From a virus: 64,000 nt of DNA. The position numbers and the translations under genes were made by a program. Shown here in pieces: positions 1,375 through 55,815 of the stretch (position 1 is its first letter; each line of letters starts with the position of its first letter). The stretch is from the IMG/VR virus record IMGVR_UViG_3300027904_000001; one strand, written 5' to 3'. Below the pieces are notes generated by a model, which saw only the letters and a list, made by a program, of their open reading frames with translations, was not told the DNA's origin and ran no database searches.

Positions 1375-1881
1375 TTATTCAACCCTTTCTACTATTAAAA
1401 GCTCTGTGGCCTGAAGCTTTTCGCCGCCATTACAGTAAATAATATCATTATAATCTATATGTTTATCCCGTGTTCTTAATCCTCTTTTATTGATATTTTG
1501 ATTTATTTCACTTAGAGCGCCATCATAAATATCAATTACTTTTAGATTAACTTTTGCCTTTGGAAATTTTTTCAACATATCTGATATTTCATAAAATGGC
1601 ATGTTTGACTCCATCAAAGCCCAGAAACAATCTTTATTTTCTTTTTCAGGCCTTTTGACTGAAGCAATTAAATAATATTTTTCTTCATATTCTATCCATT
1701 GATCAGATAAAATTTCCTTAAAATCCCATCTAACTGAATCACTGCAATCATCATATTTCCTATAGATTTTGTCATTTGTGAAATCTATCCAAATATAATT
1801 CCCGGGTGTCCAATTAGGCATAGCAATTCTTTTACCTTCTCTCAATAAAGGCAATACCTGTTCAAACAACATTTTCATCAT
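1375..1881 (-). CDS. Hypothetical protein with a DUF2829-like (Tad2-like) N-terminal domain
   Basis: LFEQVLPLLREGKRIAMPNWTPGNYIWIDF ... ILSDQWIEYEE resembles the DUF2829 pattern (FEEALKALKEGKKVRR..W ... EDWEIV). Confidence 0.4.
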   Translation of the reverse strand: MMKMLFEQVLPLLREGKRIAMPNWTPGNYIWIDFTNDKIYRKYDDCSDSVRWDFKEILSDQWIEYEEKYYLIASVKRPEKENKDCFWALMESNMPFYEISDMLKKFPKAKVNLKVIDIYDGALSEINQNINKRGLRTRDKHIDYNDIIYCNGGEKLQATELLIVERVE

Positions 1882-46491: not shown

Positions 46492-46968
46492 GTGGAATTT
46501 GAAGAAATATTGCTGGAATTAAAAAAAGGAAAGCGTGCAAGGCGCAAACAATGGCATAAAAACAATATGCCAACAGCAAATATTTTCATAGACAATGATA
46601 TTATAAGATACGAATGTTTAGATGCGGGTTATGAGATTTGTAAAATGTGGAGTCCAGTTGATATTAGTTCGGATGATTGGGAAATTATTGAAGTTAAATC
46701 GCCATCATTGGAATTACAAAATATATCAAAGGCGATGGCGGAAAGCATATCAGAGAATATTAGAAATACTGGTTTATTAGATATATCAAATAAAGACAAT
46801 AATGATGCTTTTTCGCGAGAAGAAATTAAAAATATACTTGAAAAAGAATTAGAAGAAATTAACAGTCAGTATAAAATAAGCAATAAATATTTAAAAGGAT
46901 ATTTGCTTGGTAATTTAGATGGCAGAAAAAATACAATATTAAATATTTTAACATTATTAATTAAATAA
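46492..46968 (+). CDS. DUF2829-domain protein (Tad2-like anti-defence sponge family) with C-terminal extension
   Basis: MEFEEILLELKKGKRARRKQW...ISSDDWEIIE matches the DUF2829 consensus (FEEAL.ALK.GKKVRR..W ... EDWEIV). Confidence 0.55.
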   Translation: MEFEEILLELKKGKRARRKQWHKNNMPTANIFIDNDIIRYECLDAGYEICKMWSPVDISSDDWEIIEVKSPSLELQNISKAMAESISENIRNTGLLDISNKDNNDAFSREEIKNILEKELEEINSQYKISNKYLKGYLLGNLDGRKNTILNILTLLIK

Positions 46969-47253
46969 AGAATGGTGACGAAATGCTTTATTTAGCAAGA
47001 AGGTTTGAATAATATTATTTAAATTATAAATTAAAATTAAATAAATTAAAAAACAAAAAACATTTGACTCCAATAGAAAAGCGAAGAGGTAAATATAAAA
47101 CGGAAAAAGAATACGAAAACGAATATTATAATTTGTTATAAAATTTTCCTTGTAAAGGACACTGAAAACGCTTATACTGAAAAAGTGAAGCTTTGTTTAT
47201 TCCTAAAAACAGATAATATCCTAATATCTAGATTCAATATCGGAAACCCAGAA

Positions 47254-47290
47254 AAACGGCTTCTTGGCTCCTCGGAGGCCGTTTTTTATT
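47254..47290 (+). terminator. Rho-independent terminator (possible 3' end of a small RNA starting about 47150)
   Basis: aaacggcttcttggctcctcggaggccgtttttt. Confidence 0.45.
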
Positions 47291-47328
47291 TTTACTTTTT
47301 GAGGAAATGTAAATAGGCAGGTGCCTTT

Positions 47329-48233: not shown

Positions 48234-49430
48234 ATGGAAATAATAAAATTGCCAATAAACTCTATAAAAAAGTATGAAAATAATGCCAAAATTCATACTG
48301 AAGAACAGATTCAACATATAATAAATAGTATTAAGCAATTTGGCTTTAATGACCCCATAGGTGTCTCAACTGATCAAAATATATGTGTCGAGGGACACGG
48401 CCGGCTTGAAGCATTAAAACAATTAGGTTATAAGGATGTTGAATGTATTCGGCTTGATCATTTGACGGATGAAGAAAGACGTGCATATGCTTTAGTTCAT
48501 AATCAAAGTACGATGGAAACGCATTTTGATGATGATTTGTTGAAAATAGAGCTTGATAATATATTTGATTTAGATATGTCTGATTTTGGTTTCGACTGGG
48601 GAGGGGCAGAATCGTTGGGCTTTAGTGGTGAAATTATTGAAGATGATATTCCTGATATACAAGACAATCTGATTGTTCAATTGGGTGATGTTTGGCAATT
48701 AGGGCAACACCGACTTATGTGTGGGAATTCAACTATTTTAAAAGATGTTGACAAGCTAATGAATGGCAATAATACGGATATATCTTTTACAAGCCCACCA
48801 TATAATATGGGAAAATCGCCAAGCAAAAATGTCAACAAAAATAATAGTAAATATATTAATAATGATGATAACATGTCAGAAATAGAATATGTTGAGTTTC
48901 TTCAATTATTTACTAATTTAGCACTTGATTATTCTGAATATTGTTTTGTAAATATTCAGTCATTATCAGGTAATAAAATTGCATTAATTGAATATCTATA
49001 TAAAATGAAAAAATTATATGCTGATACCATTATATGGGATAAACAGATTTCAGAGCCAGCAATGGGTGAAAACATATTAAATAGTCAATTTGAGTATGTG
49101 CATATATTTAGCAAAAAAGCGAACAGACGAATTGGCACAAGACCATTCAGGGGTACAATCAACAATATTTTAAATATTAATAAGCAAAATGATAATAAGC
49201 AATCGGATATTCATGGTGCAACATTCCCGTTAGAATTTGCGATGTATTTTGTAGAAAAATTTAGTGAAAAATCAGTATTTGAGCCTTTTAGCGGTTCGGG
49301 TACAACAATTATAGCATGTGAACAGATACACAGGAAATGCTATGCTATGGAATTAGAACCAATATATTGTGATATTGCGATTAAGCGATGGGAAAATTTA
49401 ACAGGAAATACAGCAATAAAAATAGAGTAG
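48234..49430 (+). CDS. ParB-like N-terminal domain fused to DNA N6-adenine/N4-cytosine methyltransferase
   Basis: ParB motif VEGHGRLEAL. Methyltransferase motif IV FTSPPY and motif I FEPFSGSGTT. Confidence 0.7.
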   Translation: MEIIKLPINSIKKYENNAKIHTEEQIQHIINSIKQFGFNDPIGVSTDQNICVEGHGRLEALKQLGYKDVECIRLDHLTDEERRAYALVHNQSTMETHFDDDLLKIELDNIFDLDMSDFGFDWGGAESLGFSGEIIEDDIPDIQDNLIVQLGDVWQLGQHRLMCGNSTILKDVDKLMNGNNTDISFTSPPYNMGKSPSKNVNKNNSKYINNDDNMSEIEYVEFLQLFTNLALDYSEYCFVNIQSLSGNKIALIEYLYKMKKLYADTIIWDKQISEPAMGENILNSQFEYVHIFSKKANRRIGTRPFRGTINNILNINKQNDNKQSDIHGATFPLEFAMYFVEKFSEKSVFEPFSGSGTTIIACEQIHRKCYAMELEPIYCDIAIKRWENLTGNTAIKIE

Positions 49431-49553
49431 GTGAAATAATGCCAGCGGGAAGACCAAAAAAAGAGATAGATCAAAAACAATTTGAAGTAGAGTAGGTGAA
49501 ATAATGCCAGCGGGAAGACCAAAAAAAGAGATAGATCAAAAACAATTTGAAGT
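49424..49553 (+). repeat. Perfect 65-bp tandem direct duplication spanning the terminase-small-subunit RBS and first 17 codons
   Basis: agagtaggtgaaataatgccagcgggaagaccaaaaaaagagatagatcaaaaacaatttgaagt occurs twice, back to back. Confidence 0.85.
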
Positions 49554-49968
49554 ATTGTGTTATATGCAAATGACAAAAAAAGATATATGTGAAGTATTAG
49601 ATGTATCTGAGAATAAATTAAGTGCATGGTGCGAAGAAAAATATGGTGATAAATTTTGCGTAATCTATTCCCAAAAAAGGGTTCTAGGAAAAGCATCATT
49701 TAGGAAATCCTTTTATGAGTTGGCGAAAAAAAATGCAACTGCTGCAATTTATGTAGATAAATCGTGGTTCAATGGAAGTGAATTGTCAGAATTAGATATA
49801 GAAATAAAACAGGCTCAGCTTGCGAAGCTTAAAGCCGAAACCGAACTCATAAACAGTAAACTAAATAATACATTTGAAGAAGAAGCACTACAAAAATTAG
49901 ATATGTTATTAGAGCAAAATAAGCAAGGTGCTGAAGCTGATGCCGAAATTCACGAAGAAACAGAATGA
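49504..49968 (+). CDS. terS: Terminase small subunit (HTH)
   Basis: Sits immediately upstream of the large subunit. MPAGRPKKEIDQKQFEVLCYMQMTKKDICEVLDVSENKLSAW. Confidence 0.6.
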   Translation: MPAGRPKKEIDQKQFEVLCYMQMTKKDICEVLDVSENKLSAWCEEKYGDKFCVIYSQKRVLGKASFRKSFYELAKKNATAAIYVDKSWFNGSELSELDIEIKQAQLAKLKAETELINSKLNNTFEEEALQKLDMLLEQNKQGAEADAEIHEETE

Positions 49969-51238
49969 ATATATTAGAAATGCGAACGCACGTTGGAATC
50001 TGAAGACAGGAGCCGTTAGAAGTGGAAAATCATACGTCGATATGTTTCATATGATACCAATGAGAATTAGAGAGCGAGCCAGAAAAGAAGGATTAATATT
50101 TATCATGGGCGTCACTGAAAGTACTATAGAGCGAAATTTACTTGACCCTATGCGAAAAGTATTTGGCGATTCACTTATTGGTAGAATAGGTAAAAATAAT
50201 AAATGCAGATTATTTGGTGAAACCGTATATTGCATTGGTGCCGAGAAGATATCACAAATAAGTAAGATTCAGGGAAATTCTACAAAGTACTTGTATTGCG
50301 ATGAATTAGCAAAATGGAACAAAGAAGTATTTAATTTCCTAAAAACAAGACTTGATAAGCCTTATAGTTTATGCGATGCAACATGCAATCCTGAAGGACG
50401 TAAACATTGGTTAAAAAAATTTATTGATAGTAAGAAAGATGGCATTGATTTATATGTGCAAACATATCGAATAGAAGATAATGCTGAAAACTTAGGTGCA
50501 GATTTTATTGAAAACTTAAAAAAAGAATTATTTGGTACAATCGCATATGACAAACTTATAGAAGGACGTTGGATTCAAAGTTCTGGATTGTGCTTCCCGC
50601 TTTTTGCCAATGATAACAAAAGATATATAAATGATTTAGATTCATACTTGACAGAATCACAGCAACAATTAGCGAGAGTTTATTGCGGAATTGACTATGG
50701 TTTTGGTGAAGGAAAAACATGTATGGTTTTGACGGCTGTTACAAAAAATTATAAAACACTTATAGCATTAGAAGAAAAGTCCATAGAAAAAGAAATTAAC
50801 CCCGCTCAACTTGAAAATATATATTGTGATTTTATTGAAAAAGCTTTTAAAAAATATCACTTGCCGATTTATGCATTTGCTGATACAAGTGACCAAATTT
50901 TAACAAAAGGACTTTCTAATGAGTCAAAAGTTCGTAGATTGCAAGCAGTGACCATATCAGTTACCAAAGTTGAAATAGTGGACAGGATCGCAATTATCAA
51001 TAAATTATTAGCTACGGACAGATTCAAGATAATGAATAATTGCAAGGAATTGATAGGTGGACTTAATGATGCATCATATGACGAAGAAAAGTCAATTGAT
51101 AAAGATGTTCGATCAAAAGACGGTTCATACAATGATCATATCGTAGATGGGTTTGAATATTCATTTAGCCACATCATAAATCAACTTGAAAATGCAAGCC
51201 TGCATAGAAATAAAAACTTGAAATCATTTGTAATTTAA
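49928..51238 (+). CDS. terL: Terminase large subunit
   Basis: Walker A GAVRSGKS, Walker B LYCDE, C-terminal nuclease domain. Confidence 0.75.
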   Translation: MLKLMPKFTKKQNEYIRNANARWNLKTGAVRSGKSYVDMFHMIPMRIRERARKEGLIFIMGVTESTIERNLLDPMRKVFGDSLIGRIGKNNKCRLFGETVYCIGAEKISQISKIQGNSTKYLYCDELAKWNKEVFNFLKTRLDKPYSLCDATCNPEGRKHWLKKFIDSKKDGIDLYVQTYRIEDNAENLGADFIENLKKELFGTIAYDKLIEGRWIQSSGLCFPLFANDNKRYINDLDSYLTESQQQLARVYCGIDYGFGEGKTCMVLTAVTKNYKTLIALEEKSIEKEINPAQLENIYCDFIEKAFKKYHLPIYAFADTSDQILTKGLSNESKVRRLQAVTISVTKVEIVDRIAIINKLLATDRFKIMNNCKELIGGLNDASYDEEKSIDKDVRSKDGSYNDHIVDGFEYSFSHIINQLENASLHRNKNLKSFVI

Positions 51239-51411
51239 CATAAGCTTATCAGTGCAGCAATACCACACAAAAGACAAGCAAATAATAAGAGCCTTAAAAT
51301 TGGCAACCAGGTTAATAATGGTGGTATCTGCACTAAATTTACTGCGTAGCAAGCAGAGCATAGTCTTCTGCCAGAAAAAGTAAAAATAATTATCAAGGAT
51401 TAATAAAAATT

Positions 51412-51681
51412 ATGAAGATGAATCTGGAAGCAATTGTTCAACTTGAAAATTTAATAAATGAAATCTCTGAAAGAGACTTCCCTAATGATTACGCACCTTT
51501 AAAAAAATGTAAATTAATATTGTCACAAGAGTTACCTTATGCAATACTATATTATCGTAGATGGAATGATGAAACAGGCGTCTTTACAAAATATAAATAT
51601 TATGTCGAGTGTTTTGACGATGAATGGCGTATATATAGAAAAAATATATGTATAAGTGAGAAGATAAAAGATGAACAATAA
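51412..51681 (+). CDS. Hypothetical protein
   Basis: ORF. Confidence 0.4.
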   Translation: MKMNLEAIVQLENLINEISERDFPNDYAPLKKCKLILSQELPYAILYYRRWNDETGVFTKYKYYVECFDDEWRIYRKNICISEKIKDEQ

Positions 51682-51895
51682 AAAAAGTTTGGATAACAAT
51701 ATTATGAATATAGAACTTAACAGTAATATAGAAAAAATATATGATGAATATGTAACGGATATATGGGAAATGTTAGAACCTGCAGTTATATATCTTAGAA
51801 AATATCGCGATCCCCATATGAAGTTCTTAATTACAATCGACGGGATAAAGGCGGTGATTAATATTTATGAATGTTACAATCCAAATATCGGATGA
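51671..51895 (+). CDS. Hypothetical protein
   Basis: ORF. Confidence 0.35.
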   Translation: MNNKKSLDNNIMNIELNSNIEKIYDEYVTDIWEMLEPAVIYLRKYRDPHMKFLITIDGIKAVINIYECYNPNIG

Positions 51896-52433
51896 AGCAG
51901 TAAATGAATTGATTAATGGTAATTTGATAAAAGTTCCGAATGAAGATTTGAATCAAATAATAATAAAAGCCGTAAGCGAATATTTAAACAATCAATATCA
52001 TCGGCAGTATTTTCTCGACGATGTAATTGGTAAAAATTATCAATTGGCGCAAGATATAGTGAAAATGATTAAAGATGCTACTGGTGAGATTACGCCAGAT
52101 GACGTGAAGGAAATTATTAAAGACAGAGCTATAAATTATATAGAAGATTGTATTCTTGATAAATTATTGTTTAAAGATAATCACGCTCCAGTTCCTGAGT
52201 TCCAAAAAGTAATTGATGGTGTATTCAAAAGTGAAGAATTAAAATTAGCCGTTCATAATAGAGCCATAAAATTGACAGAAGAAATGGAAGATATTGATTT
52301 AAACTGGAATGCAATTATGAATGAAATTATAATTGATTTTGTTAAATATAATATATTTACTCATCATAGTATCCATCAAGCAATTGACGACAAGTTAAGA
52401 AACTTATCAAGCAATCTACGAAAAACTTTTTGA
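51867..52433 (+). CDS. Hypothetical protein
   Basis: ORF of 188 aa. Confidence 0.45.
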   Translation: MNVTIQISDEAVNELINGNLIKVPNEDLNQIIIKAVSEYLNNQYHRQYFLDDVIGKNYQLAQDIVKMIKDATGEITPDDVKEIIKDRAINYIEDCILDKLLFKDNHAPVPEFQKVIDGVFKSEELKLAVHNRAIKLTEEMEDIDLNWNAIMNEIIIDFVKYNIFTHHSIHQAIDDKLRNLSSNLRKTF

Positions 52434-52502
52434 CACAAATAACACCCGCTTTTCCTGCTTATTATTTAATTGCGGGTTTTTTGACATATAATATTAGAAT
52501 AG

Positions 52503-52718
52503 GTGATTATTATAAATGTTAAAATTCAATATGAAGAAGCTCACGAATGTTATAATATACAAGTATTTATACCAAAAAATGTATTAGATATTTATGACAA
52601 TGAAACATTAAAAAAAATTATAAAAGGTTGTATAATCGAACATATTGATGATAATTTTAATATGCACGAATTAGATAATAATATCTTGAATAAATCAAGC
52701 GGGGGCAAATTAAGATGA
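52503..52718 (+). CDS. Hypothetical protein
   Basis: ORF. Confidence 0.35.
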   Translation: MIIINVKIQYEEAHECYNIQVFIPKNVLDIYDNETLKKIIKGCIIEHIDDNFNMHELDNNILNKSSGGKLR

Positions 52719-52891
52719 CTAACGAAGAAATTATGCAATTTAAGTGTAATATTTTTGAAGATAAATTAAGTGAAGTCATGGAAGAAGTATATAATATTTA
52801 TTCTGCGGCAGATGACCAATTGCAAAAATATGCTATACATATTGTTGAAAGATTGGGAAATGGAGATATCAAGGAATACGGCAGAATTTAA
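52715..52891 (+). CDS. Hypothetical small protein (58 aa)
   Basis: Below the ORF-track cutoff; ATGA overlap. Confidence 0.3.
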   Translation: MTNEEIMQFKCNIFEDKLSEVMEEVYNIYSAADDQLQKYAIHIVERLGNGDIKEYGRI

Positions 52892-52962
52892 ATTCAAACA
52901 AAACTTAATGAAGAATGTTTAGAAATAACTCAAGCTTATTGAAGGTTCCAGCTGGGGAATGA

Positions 52963-53208
52963 TTGAAAATGAATATAGTTAAACATGGTAAGATTAAAAA
53001 AGGGACAAAACTAGCTAAAATTTTTAGATGCAATAATTGCGAATGCATATTTGTAGCGAATAAAGATGAATATTATATTACAGTAGAATGGTATGAATAT
53101 GAATATTCAAATACTGTAAGATGGCACGGAGATATTTATTATATGTGCAATTGTCCAGAATGTAATTTTAAAGCTTATGAAAAACGATTATCGGGTAAAA
53201 ATCATTGA
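52963..53208 (+). CDS. Small zinc-ribbon protein
   Basis: CNNCEC...CNCPECN. Confidence 0.4.
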   Translation: MKMNIVKHGKIKKGTKLAKIFRCNNCECIFVANKDEYYITVEWYEYEYSNTVRWHGDIYYMCNCPECNFKAYEKRLSGKNH

Positions 53209-53265
53209 CTATATTTATTTGGATACGGCGTCTTTGTGATTCATTTAAAAAAAAGAGAGGCGAAA

Positions 53266-53445
53266 GATGAATATTAAGATTTGTAAAAGATGTAATCATT
53301 CTCAAGAATTGAAAGGTAAATTATATTGTCTTAAAGATTTAAATCCTAAGTATCGTCCTAATGATATTGTCCCATTGTGTAGAAAAATAGAATCATGTGA
53401 TTTGATTGAGGATACCCCAAAAAAAATGTTAGGTGATAAAAAATG
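53266..53445 (+). CDS. Small zinc-ribbon protein (59 aa)
   Basis: CKRCNHS...CRKIESC. RBS gagagg. Confidence 0.3.
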
Positions 53446-53661
53446 ATTAATGAAATGTTGCTAACAAGTAAAGACATTGAGCAAGTTCTGTCAAAAACAG
53501 AACCAATAATAAATGATTATAATCTTTGTAAGACGGTAGAGAGCCGGGAATTATTGGCTGAGTATATTTTTGGTAAAGTTCGCCATGCGTTGCATATGCT
53601 TCGAGTTGTTAATTACAAAGATAATAATTTGACTGATAAATATGTAGATGAGTTGAGCTAA
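53443..53661 (+). CDS. Hypothetical protein
   Basis: ORF. Confidence 0.4.
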   Translation: MINEMLLTSKDIEQVLSKTEPIINDYNLCKTVESRELLAEYIFGKVRHALHMLRVVNYKDNNLTDKYVDELS

Positions 53662-53762
53662 TAGACGGGACTGATTAAAATAAATATAATTGAATATAGC
53701 AATATATAAATATTGTTAAACATAATTTAAACATAATTTAAATTGAAAACAATCCCATTAAC

Positions 53763-53794
53763 CCCGCTTATCAATTGATTTAGCGGGCTTTTTA
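53763..53794 (+). terminator. Rho-independent terminator
   Basis: cccgcttatcaattgatttagcggg followed by cttttt. Confidence 0.5.
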
Positions 53795-54050
53795 TTGTAT
53801 AATAGAAATAAAAACCGAGGTTATGTATATGAATTACATAATAGAAAGACAATTACAATTGCCAGATACGATAGAGGGTTTAAGTAAATTTGTTCTTATA
53901 TCAATTGAAAAGGTTAGCGCGATACGTGCAGAAATCCGGGCTATAAAAAACCGATGAAGACCCTGATAATGAAAATGATTAAAAAGTAAACAGGTCGCAA
54001 AATTAAACATTGCCTATTGAAATATTGATAAGCCTATTGTATAATTATAT

Positions 54051-54461
54051 ATGAGAAATTACCAAAAACATATTGAGGAGATTATAATGGGTTATATTAC
54101 AATTGATAATATTGATTCAGTTATGAAAGAAATGCAAGAAGATAGTTTTTATATTCCTAAAGTGCTTTTTAAGGACAAGAAATATAAAAAGATTAGCGTT
54201 GATAGCAAAATATTATACGGTCTATTGTTAGACAGACAAATTCAAATCAAAAAAGAGTTTAATGATCCTATAATTAATAAAATTTACTTTAGTTATGCAT
54301 TAAACGAAATTGCAAATGATTTAGGATGTAGTTGCAATAAAGCACTTAAATTATTAAACGAATTATTGAGTGTTGATCTCGTTGAAAAGCAAAAACAAAC
54401 GATTGGAAAACCCGCTATGCTTTATGTGAACGAATTAGGCTTAGAGGGTATTGAGATATGA
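54051..54461 (+). CDS. RepA_N-type replication initiator (winged-helix N-terminal domain)
   Basis: IPKVLFKDKKYKKISVDSKILYGLLLDRQ...IYFSYALNEIANDLGCSCNKALKLLNEL...GKPAMLYV matches the RepA_N pattern. Confidence 0.55.
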   Translation: MRNYQKHIEEIIMGYITIDNIDSVMKEMQEDSFYIPKVLFKDKKYKKISVDSKILYGLLLDRQIQIKKEFNDPIINKIYFSYALNEIANDLGCSCNKALKLLNELLSVDLVEKQKQTIGKPAMLYVNELGLEGIEI

Positions 54462-54718
54462 AAATAAATATGGAAAAATTTGAAAAATTTAATCGTTGTG
54501 GATATGGAGTTTCACCATCCTTATTGCATAAAGATCAAAACTTAACAATTGAAGCTAAAGGCATTTATTGTTATTTTATGTGTTTTCTAATGACTGTCAA
54601 CAATGAACCTTGTTTACAGCTACCTAAAGTTGAAGAGATAGTTAAAGACCTGAATATATCTGAAAATAGATACTATAAACATTTGAAGTTGCTAAAAGAA
54701 AATGAATATATAATTTAA
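54458..54718 (+). CDS. Replisome-organizer N-terminal-like wHTH protein
   Basis: GYGVSPSLLHKDQNLTIEAKGIYCYFMCF...ENRYYKHLKLLKENEYI. Confidence 0.45.
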   Translation: MKINMEKFEKFNRCGYGVSPSLLHKDQNLTIEAKGIYCYFMCFLMTVNNEPCLQLPKVEEIVKDLNISENRYYKHLKLLKENEYII

Positions 54719-54842
54719 AGAATTAATTGGCTAAATGTATTATTTTGTTTGTGGATTTTACTTTTGGGCAATTCTAGATTTACATTGAACTAATTATAAT
54801 ATATACTAACTACATAGTGCAAAACGCAGTCGCGAGCGTTGA

Positions 54843-54872
54843 GGTAGGCATTTCCTATTCACCTACCTTTTT
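54843..54872 (+). terminator. Rho-independent terminator
   Basis: ggtaggcatttcctattcacctacc followed by ttttt. Confidence 0.5.
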
Positions 54873-54946
54873 AAGCACTAATTTTTTTATGAAGAATAGG
54901 AAAAAGGATAAAAATAAAATTTATTAAATGAATAGGAGTCTTTATA

Positions 54947-55807
54947 ATGAAAGATGATGAAATAAGAGATCGATTAGAAGTCGATGGTATTTTAGCCATG
55001 GGATATGGCAATAGTCCGAAAATATTGCATAAAGATCGTAGATTAACTATGGAAGCAAAGGAAATTTATTGTTACTTATCAAGTTATTGCGGTGGTGGTT
55101 CAGTTGCATTCCCAAGCCGTAAAACCATTTTATATGATTTAGTTACATCAGAAACTAGATTTTATAGGCATTTCCAGTTACTAAAAGATTATGGATATAT
55201 AGAAGTTACACGTATTAGAAAAAATAATAAATTCGGACATAATGTTTACAAATTAATTCAAAATCCTTCTCTATGCCCTCGTTTTGAAGGCATAGAAAAT
55301 GAATGCATACAAAAACAATGCATAGAAAATGAGGGCACTAATAAAAACAGTACTAATAAAAACAAAAAAAATAAAAACAACAACAACATTACAGATCAAA
55401 TTTCAAACACTGATACTTCTCAGTCCTCAAACGTTGTTGTTGTTAAAGACTTTCTTTTTGAAGACTCTTCTATGATTCCACACAGATCAGTTGACAACAG
55501 TTCTGGGGTGGAGTCGGTTGACATACAAGCGATTGATGATTTAATTAAGAAATATATAACTCCGAAACAAGATATAGATCATGCCAGCCTGAAAAGTATA
55601 AGTGCTGCCAGCGGGTTTAGCATGGAAAGATTAGAGAAAATACTAAAAACAGTACAAGGACAAGAAAATAAAATTAGGGGGATTGTCGGTTGGCTTATTA
55701 AAGCTATCAGTAACCCCGCTTTTGATTTAAGCAAAGTTGAGATTGAAGAAAAAAAATATGAACCGGTTAAGAAAGAAAAAAAAGGGCTGGATAGATGGCA
55801 GAATTGA
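54947..55807 (+). CDS. Replisome organizer (Phage_rep_org_N-like) with internal iterons and KKEKKGLDRWQN tail
   Basis: GYGNSPKILHKDRRLTMEAKEIYCYLSSYCGGGSVAFPSRKTILYDL...; C-terminus IVGWLIKAISNPAFDL...KKEKKGLDRWQN. Repeats gcatagaaaatga occur twice, at 55290..55331. Confidence 0.6.
   Translation: MKDDEIRDRLEVDGILAMGYGNSPKILHKDRRLTMEAKEIYCYLSSYCGGGSVAFPSRKTILYDLVTSETRFYRHFQLLKDYGYIEVTRIRKNNKFGHNVYKLIQNPSLCPRFEGIENECIQKQCIENEGTNKNSTNKNKKNKNNNNITDQISNTDTSQSSNVVVVKDFLFEDSSMIPHRSVDNSSGVESVDIQAIDDLIKKYITPKQDIDHASLKSISAASGFSMERLEKILKTVQGQENKIRGIVGWLIKAISNPAFDLSKVEIEEKKYEPVKKEKKGLDRWQN
55288..55375. repeat. Iteron-like direct repeats inside gene 54947..55807
   Basis: ggcatagaaaatgaatgcatacaaaaacaatgcatagaaaatgagggcactaataaaaacagtactaataaaaac. 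Confidence 0.4.
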
Positions 55808-55815
55808 GGTGGCAA

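Follow-up and report, generated by a model that had tools for sequence, protein, structure and literature searches.

Tad2 sponges are a major route by which phages disarm signalling immunity (Thoeris, CBASS and Pycsar), and modest alterations to the pocket and the insertion are known to redirect their specificity. SPO1 Tad2 (Gp34.65; PDB 8SME/8SMF/8SMG and 8WJE) is a single domain of 89 aa, with a core comprising helix α1, an antiparallel sheet and α3. A 24-residue insertion between β2 and β3 carries helix α2, which forms a dimer interface. The ligand 1''-3' gcADPR is contacted by W25, N26, I63, T65, D67, H71, W73, S76, T78 and D79 (10.1101/2023.05.01.538930). HgmTad2, also called AcrIIA7 (8KBI-8KBM and 8WJC), and SptTad2 (8WJD) bind cyclic dinucleotides via an insertion of 35-41 residues located between β2 and β5. 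In HgmTad2 the substitutions W21A/N22A and S90A/T92A/D93A each led to markedly less gcADPR binding; W21 and D93 correspond to SPO1 W25 and D79, while W87, the equivalent of the second tryptophan, is a reported contact that was not among the mutated residues (10.1101/2023.11.15.567273). MoTad2 (9EIB/8V3E) is a sponge for His-ADPR and for cUMP/cCMP. It forms a tetramer of 89-aa chains with the insertion present and no C-terminal tail, and its second pocket, which takes the Pycsar signals, lies at the A-C interface and is built partly by the insertion.

The family has been sampled more broadly in a survey of sponge diversity covering 84 proteins (Table S2 therein), where Tad2_79 (80 aa) blocked Thoeris of both type I and type IV; Tad2_80 (73 aa), the sole tested member without the insertion and also without the second tryptophan, inhibited none of seven systems, and Tad2_69, Tad2_75 and Tad2_84 were likewise inactive (10.1101/2025.08.24.671296). 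Membership of the family alone therefore does not predict sponge activity. DUF2829 domains are also found in multi-domain proteins, where the added part is either N-terminal (PF25311 followed by PF11195, and the crAss-like csAssE-Sib protein WOZ57315.1) or a second DUF2829 domain. Domains of 62-66 aa that lack the insertion occur in these N-terminally extended or tandem proteins, a modular use of the domain. The tandem DUF2829-DUF2829 proteins in IMG/VR (loci L111, L087, L094, L046, L109, L055 and L130) have 160-230 aa, and comprise a short insertion-less first domain (…PSWSGYWYWD…DIRETQRVEYTLSNILSDEW…) followed by a canonical second domain with the motif GWNGKGM. From its sequence, such a fusion would be a covalent pseudo-dimer of a normally tetrameric protein.

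The gene described here lies in a 64,000-nt stretch of viral DNA (IMG/VR record IMGVR_UViG_3300027904_000001; the window), with a GC content of 30-32%. The features of the locus are collected in Table 1. The open reading frame put forward in the initial annotation, 46492..46968 on the plus strand, stands as a complete gene, with a GTG start, 158 aa and a stop codon, preceded by a Shine-Dalgarno sequence. The probability of an intact 158-codon frame arising by chance at 30% GC is about 1e-6, and that of the 92 extra stop-free codons past the domain is 3.7e-4 given the base composition of the window. No long alternative frame in the list of open reading frames overlaps it. The identical protein is encoded by two independently assembled ENA contigs of 89 and 19 kb and by a JGI record; each contig has one mismatch to the window, outside the 46492 gene, and a 65-bp indel near 49485, and is otherwise identical. 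The gene is real. Its product carries all of the family-invariant, fold-determining residues F3, L7, G13, W21, P55, D57, D62 and W63. The DUF2829 label is already known from the NCBI annotation, where the protein is entered as MCL2310877.1, 'MAG: DUF2829 domain-containing protein [Firmicutes bacterium]'. The ~65 extra bases in the ENA contigs are apparently a short duplication (window ~49485..49489 compared with L001 12929..12998), situated between the methylase gene and a 154-aa open reading frame that precedes the terminase.

Table 1. Positions in the window of the 46492 gene parts, the flanking signals and the other DUF2829 genes
Feature	Coordinates	Strand	Description
Minimal Tad2-like (DUF2829) domain	46492..46689	+	Residues 1-66; helix α1, β-sheet, short α3
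Orphan C-terminal extension	46690..46965	+	Residues 67-158, 92 aa; predicted 4-5 α-helices
Shine-Dalgarno GAAGGAGG	46474..46481	+	10 nt 5' of the GTG start; direct sequence reading
Upstream gene	45996..46451	+	151 aa, phrog_11237, function not known; PHROG E 7.8e-10
Sigma-70-like promoter candidate	45890..45918	+	TTGACT-17-TATAAT, 11/12 matches; upstream of unit 45996..46968
Intrinsic-terminator-like hairpin	47253..47291	+	GC-rich stem 47265-47281, T-run; about 290 nt past the stop
Diverged DUF2829-like paralogue	1375..1881	-	168 aa, ~100-aa C-terminal tail; Pfam score below cutoff
Third DUF2829 gene	58503..58757	+	84 aa, stand-alone, canonical; portal gene about 0.9 kb downstream

Judged by profile comparison, residues 1-66 of the 46492 protein belong to the DUF2829/Tad2-like family. 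The first ~70 aa had been placed there in the initial annotation, and a search with Pfam PF11195 ('Tad2-like', formerly DUF2829) upholds this: the score of 34.1 bits (E 4e-8) clears the gathering cutoff of 25, and residues 1-66 align with positions 1-73 of the 73-position profile. An independent family HMM, built from 118 homologues, none of them from the window, gave 38.7 bits (E 2.7e-11 among the 549 window open reading frames of at least 40 aa). A phmmer search of the PDB sequences with the single 46492 protein returned no Tad2 at E ≤ 10. A DUF2829 profile of six sequences that includes the 46492 domain matched all seven solved Tad2/AcrIIA7 sequences with E values from 1e-12 to 1.5e-16, comprising MoTad2 (8V3E/9EIB), SPO1 Tad2 (8SME, 8WJE), HgmTad2/AcrIIA7 (8KBI and related entries, 9KZR) and SptTad2 (8WJD). 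As the single-sequence search finds no Tad2, the link between the 46492 protein and the solved structures is by profile and fold comparison only.

An AlphaFold2 model calculated from the single sequence was too poor to use (pLDDT 50). With an alignment of 121 sequences, pLDDT was 72-91 over most of residues 1-70, and 59 for residues 41-50. The predicted model contains the elements of the Tad2 fold, i.e. helix α1, an antiparallel β-sheet and a short C-terminal α3. Its top matches in a search of BFVD folds are Tad2-like proteins and Foldseek against the PDB ranks Tad2 first, the latter without significance (E 0.84), and part of the fold match stems from the family alignment that went into the model. 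Residues 1-66 are predicted to form a maximally reduced version of the Tad2 fold.

What the domain lacks is the insertion. The β2-β3 site is occupied by 0-3 residues in the alignment, compared with 24 in SPO1 Tad2 and 41 in HgmTad2, and there is no β2-β3 or β2-β5 segment that carries helix α2. At 66 aa the domain marks the lower end of the family's size range: in an IMG/VR sample of 117 full-length domains the median is 95 aa, and just 3 have 70 aa or fewer. The 46492 protein shares its Pfam family and its core of α1, antiparallel sheet and α3 with SPO1 Tad2, along with the motifs G-K-x-hydrophobic-R and D-D-W-E-I, and both are encoded by accessory genes of phages; it differs in lacking the insertion and in having 92 additional residues at its C-terminus.

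Of the set of SPO1 contacts, only W25, W73 and D79 are kept, as W21, W53 and D57 respectively. Relative to SPO1, N26 is replaced by H22, D67 by Y47, H71 by K51 and T78 by V56, and the position of S76 is lost in a two-residue deletion, the sequence reading W-S-P-V-D where SPO1 has W-x-P-S-Q-T-D. Three members of the conserved gcADPR set (SPO1 W25/N26/W73/S76/T78/D79, equivalent to HgmTad2 W21/N22/W87/S90/T92/D93) are therefore retained. Only the aspartate of the HgmTad2 triad S90/T92/D93 survives, and the identity with HgmTad2 is only about 30% over 60 residues. By alignment, about half of the pocket side chains of experimental importance are conserved. The evidence on conservation of the ligand pocket, a point raised in the initial annotation, is mixed: the two tryptophans and D57 are present, and the equivalents of N26, S76 and T78 are changed or deleted.

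These differences bear on which signals might be bound. Without the β2-β3 insertion and its cyclic-dinucleotide pocket, the protein is unlikely to rescue a phage from CBASS in the known way. The CBASS-sponge mechanism of HgmTad2 and SptTad2 cannot be transferred to a protein in which their insertion is absent, and from its sequence the 46492 protein is unlikely to be a CBASS sponge of the HgmTad2 type. A more general role as an immune-signal sponge is plausible but unproven on the same grounds. Tad2_79, which comes from IMG/VR, is instructive here. With W-S-K, Y, W, T, I, E in the pocket columns, it deviates at four of six pocket positions (N→S, S→T, T→I and D→E), keeping both tryptophans only. 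It is active all the same, so a non-canonical pocket can still work. Tad2_79 and the 46492 protein have in common a lysine after the first tryptophan (K27; W-S-K in one and W-H-K in the other), a tyrosine at the D67 column (Y67) and a hydrophobic residue at the T78 column. Unlike the 46492 protein, Tad2_79 has an insertion of ~15 residues and a threonine at the S76 position, and ends directly after the domain.

The remainder of the protein is a tail for which the model predicts helices at residues 73-93, 95-99, 109-127, 131-144 and 148-157. They are amphipathic, and were predicted consistently in two runs, without and with an alignment. The AlphaFold2 confidence is low to moderate, with pLDDT of 41-75 overall, 60-75 up to about residue 130 and <50 after residue 140. 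Family members typically end within about 10 residues of the motif D-W-x-[IV], and the 46492 protein does not. It has 95 residues after the terminal D-W motif, compared with ≤10 in all 118 of the best family matches from outside the window. Among 120 IMG/VR loci identified through the GWNGKGM motif, 116 of 128 domain matches end within 10 residues of the D-W motif, and the seven that are followed by more than 60 residues are all the first half of tandem DUF2829-DUF2829 proteins. Just one protein in these loci (L063, 148 aa) has a C-terminal tail of >30 aa that is not DUF2829; this tail, of 59 aa, looks unrelated to that of the 46492 protein. The extension was flagged as unusual at the outset, and a frequency of none in 118 best family matches and about one in 120 IMG/VR loci bears this out.

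No credible homologue of the tail was found in 1.84 billion representative proteins, in Pfam or in PHROGs. Searched in full, the 46492 protein retrieved only identical copies and a Piromyces finnis protein (P0002) from 5.8 billion clusters in a word-indexed search, and only the identical protein and P0002 from the 1.84 billion representatives in an exhaustive phmmer search. When the tails of the 46492 and 1375 proteins were each compared alone with Pfam, PHROGs and NCBIfam, nothing rose above noise. PADLOC found nothing, and neither megablast nor tblastn with the region and the protein gave a match at E ≤ 0.01 in 50,697 phage records. P0002 was considered as a relative of the tail and rejected. 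It is a repetitive protein in which one E/K-rich motif of 37 aa (EKELEEINxQ) is counted five times, and the best single BLASTP alignment has 33 bits and a pairwise E of 2e-6, which is not significant against 1.8 billion sequences and is attributed to chance. The tail is a lineage-specific extension of 92 residues, predicted to be helical and without detectable relatives.

The phage has three divergent DUF2829 genes, i.e. 46492..46968, 1375..1881 and 58503..58757. That 1375..1881 contains a more diverged DUF2829-like copy had been suspected from the start, and comparison with the 46492 protein bears out the relationship. The Smith-Waterman score against the N-terminal 66 residues is 64, compared with 24.6 ± 4.9 for shuffles (z≈8), and BLASTP of the two proteins gives 32% identity over 95 aa (E 6e-5). 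The match to PF11195 is sub-threshold at 20.7 bits (cutoff 25), with residues 4-38 aligning to the first 32 positions of the profile, and the independent HMM gave 22.6 bits (E 2.5e-6). Common ancestry of the tails of the 1375 and 46492 proteins was also considered; their Smith-Waterman score equals the shuffle mean, and they are unrelated. Residues ~84-108 of the 1375 protein give it a second, faint similarity to α1 of DUF2829 (MPFYEISDMLKKFPKAKV), so that by sequence this tail may be a degenerate tandem DUF2829 domain. The gene at 58503..58757 had been missed previously. It scores 32.6 bits with PF11195 (cutoff 25), residues 1-68 aligning with profile positions 1-72 of 73, and E 3.1e-5 with the independent HMM. 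The pocket columns vary across the three paralogues, with H/D/T after the first tryptophan, and V-D / E-D / K-E at the positions of T78-D79.

The window contains the genes of a tailed phage, including those for the large terminase (49928..51238), the portal (59658..61211), the major head protein (61992..62948), a primase-helicase and a LydA-type holin. The relatives of the portal, with ≤36% identity, are found in genomes of Lachnospiraceae, Oscillospiraceae and other Clostridia. At 42442..43140 (+) there is a gene for a protein with the C-terminal, DNA-binding domain of Spo0A (93.7 bits), which suggests manipulation of host sporulation and an endospore-forming host within the Clostridia. The portal relatives and the Spo0A-domain gene both point to a Clostridia host, and the 46492 gene is probably an accessory gene of a tailed phage of gut Clostridia.

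Starting on the 5' side, the promoter candidate is preceded by an inverted repeat with a run of T after it (AATAGCCCT/AGGGCTATT, ~45806-45851), as read from the sequence. Such promoter sites are no commoner in this region than in shuffled sequence, so the candidate is suggestive only. The 151-aa gene and the 46492 gene have the same orientation, are separated by a gap of 40 nt and are probably co-transcribed. Homologues of the 151-aa gene lie between terminase and portal in the gut phage MT835477 (L140 7992..8411), and near a portal in a Peptococcaceae MAG (L150 2..406). The gene seems to encode a protein of the packaging module or a late regulator, and not a partner of the DUF2829 gene. On the 3' side, the terminator-like hairpin folds with a stem of 14 bp. 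The 3' untranslated region of the 46492 gene folds no better than shuffles (z -1.4), and no RNA family was found by Rfam between 45600 and 47400. There follow the genes for a membrane protein, the holin, a ParB-N/N6_N4 methylase and the terminase.

The neighbourhood has several further features. Directly after the holin, 48234..49430 (+) encodes a fusion of a ParB-N-like region, which at 21.7 bits stays under the Pfam cutoff of 26.3, with an N6/N4 DNA methyltransferase domain (71.2 bits). Its sequence makes a further counter-defence (anti-restriction) function in this neighbourhood likely. Directly 5' of the operon, 43112..45697 (+) encodes a protein of 861 aa with the shoulder of the Major Vault Protein (80.5 bits) and Vault_3 repeats. 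Its relatives, with 36-47% identity, are in 13 IMG/VR loci, mostly large phage contigs of 130-400 kb, and such a protein is unusual for phages. The ~8.4 kb between the large terminase and the portal (51239..59657) consist of small open reading frames, with genes for RepA_N and HTH_36 proteins and the third DUF2829 gene, and form an unusually large accessory block within the packaging module. The early or replication region includes a PAPS-reductase-like gene (21865..23061, minus strand; phrog_2302, E 3.8e-87), whose product could be part of a DNA-modification pathway, and a gene for an FtsK/SpoIIIE-like protein (17616..19451, plus strand). No DUF2829 gene was found nearby in the relatives of the vault-like gene (13 IMG/VR loci), of the 151-aa gene (MT835477 and L150) or of the portal (21 Clostridia genomes). 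In this respect the 46492 gene behaves as a lineage-specific accessory insertion, which is typical of anti-defence genes.

By analogy with characterised Tad2 proteins, the N-terminal domains of the 46492 protein would associate along helix α1. We infer this pairing because the gcADPR pocket of SPO1 Tad2 lies between protomers interlocked through α1, and not paired through α2, and because α1 is well conserved here. Two protomers would then form a shared pocket lined by W21, W53 and D57, and this pocket would sequester the ADP-ribose-derived signal of a TIR-based (Thoeris-type) system, so that the host effector would never be activated. As the equivalents of N26, S76 and T78 are changed, the ligand probably differs from the one bound by SPO1 Tad2. 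The helical tail would most likely supply the missing α2 oligomerisation or stabilising contacts, holding the protomers together, and probably adds no second known activity. An oligomerising role of the tail is suggested purely by inference. As a whole, an α1-paired pocket that sequesters an ADPR-derived signal, with the tail compensating for the lost α2 interface, is a tentative reading whose chances we place a little below even. In its favour are the three core pocket residues that are retained, the non-syntenic position of the gene, the near-consensus promoter candidate of host type and the presence of three paralogues with differing pockets. Against it are the half-conserved pocket, the absence of the insertion, and the inactivity of Tad2_80 and several other DUF2829 proteins. 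We know of no Tad2 without the insertion that is active or tetrameric.

The same properties could be read as reuse of the DUF2829 fold for something other than signal sequestration, with the orphan tail as the functional part, for example in binding a host or phage protein, and the domain serving as a scaffold or as a binder of an unrelated small molecule. The half-diverged pocket and the missing insertion would fit this, as would the many tested DUF2829 proteins without anti-defence activity, and the location of the gene beside lysis and packaging genes and not in an obvious early block. That two of the three paralogues have long, mutually unrelated tails suggests modular reuse of the domain, which elsewhere follows unrelated N-terminal domains such as PF25311 or is fused in tandem. 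All biochemically characterised DUF2829 proteins are nonetheless nucleotide-signal sponges, the three most conserved pocket residues are kept and no fold or family that would hint at an activity is recognisable in the tail; we regard such reuse as somewhat unlikely, while giving it appreciable weight. A different view of the tail makes it a new functional module, either an oligomerisation device that replaces the α2 insertion or a binder of a second target that would make the protein a bifunctional anti-defence protein, with the three paralogues acting together, possibly as hetero-oligomers, and covering several immune signals. In this composite form the proposal is quite improbable.

Should the 46492 protein instead be a decaying or neutral paralogue with no selected function, another copy would do the work, most likely the canonical 84-aa one. 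The protein is an orphan, matched only by identical copies among about 15 billion proteins; its pocket departs from the canonical residues, and the low-confidence C-terminal end could be a product of read-through. The strong Shine-Dalgarno sequence and the intact frame (P about 1e-6) speak against decay, however, as do the retention of every fold-determining residue from F3 to W63 and the amphipathic tail helices seen in two independent predictions, and we consider this unlikely. The name AcrIIA7 raises inhibition of Cas9 as an anti-CRISPR activity, since HgmTad2 was first reported as AcrIIA7, and 8kbi and 9kzr, which match the family profile, are so named. This we hold to be very improbable: neither in vitro nor in vivo could the anti-Cas9 activity of HgmTad2 be reproduced (10.1101/2023.11.15.567273), those who discovered Tad2 make the case that the family acts against Thoeris and not against CRISPR, and the only connection is the shared DUF2829 domain, at about 30% identity to HgmTad2 over 60 residues. 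It is scarcely credible that the long open reading frame is an artefact, whether an assembly or sequencing fusion of two genes or a chance frame. Such an origin might be suspected from a tail without homologues in a family that normally ends right after the D-W-x-I motif, but the sequence is identical in the window, in both independently assembled ENA contigs and in the JGI record, 92 open codons are expected by chance at 3.7e-4 with no overlapping long frame as an alternative, and the paralogue at 1375..1881 has the same layout of domain plus tail.

What is new here is a minimal Tad2-like domain with an orphan helical extension at its C-terminus, in a phage that has three divergent DUF2829 genes. 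The 46492 protein would be a reasonable candidate for a next round of sponge screening, and would not be surprising to a specialist. If the tail does replace α2, this would be a structurally new route of assembly for a sponge of the Tad2 type. Either outcome would be incremental rather than field-changing. Were the protein to bind a signal, it would be the smallest working Tad2 core, with a new solution to assembly and perhaps a new ligand specificity. Were it to bind nothing, it would help to mark where DUF2829 stops being a sponge, a boundary that is important now that databases apply the name 'Thoeris anti-defense 2-like' to the entire family.
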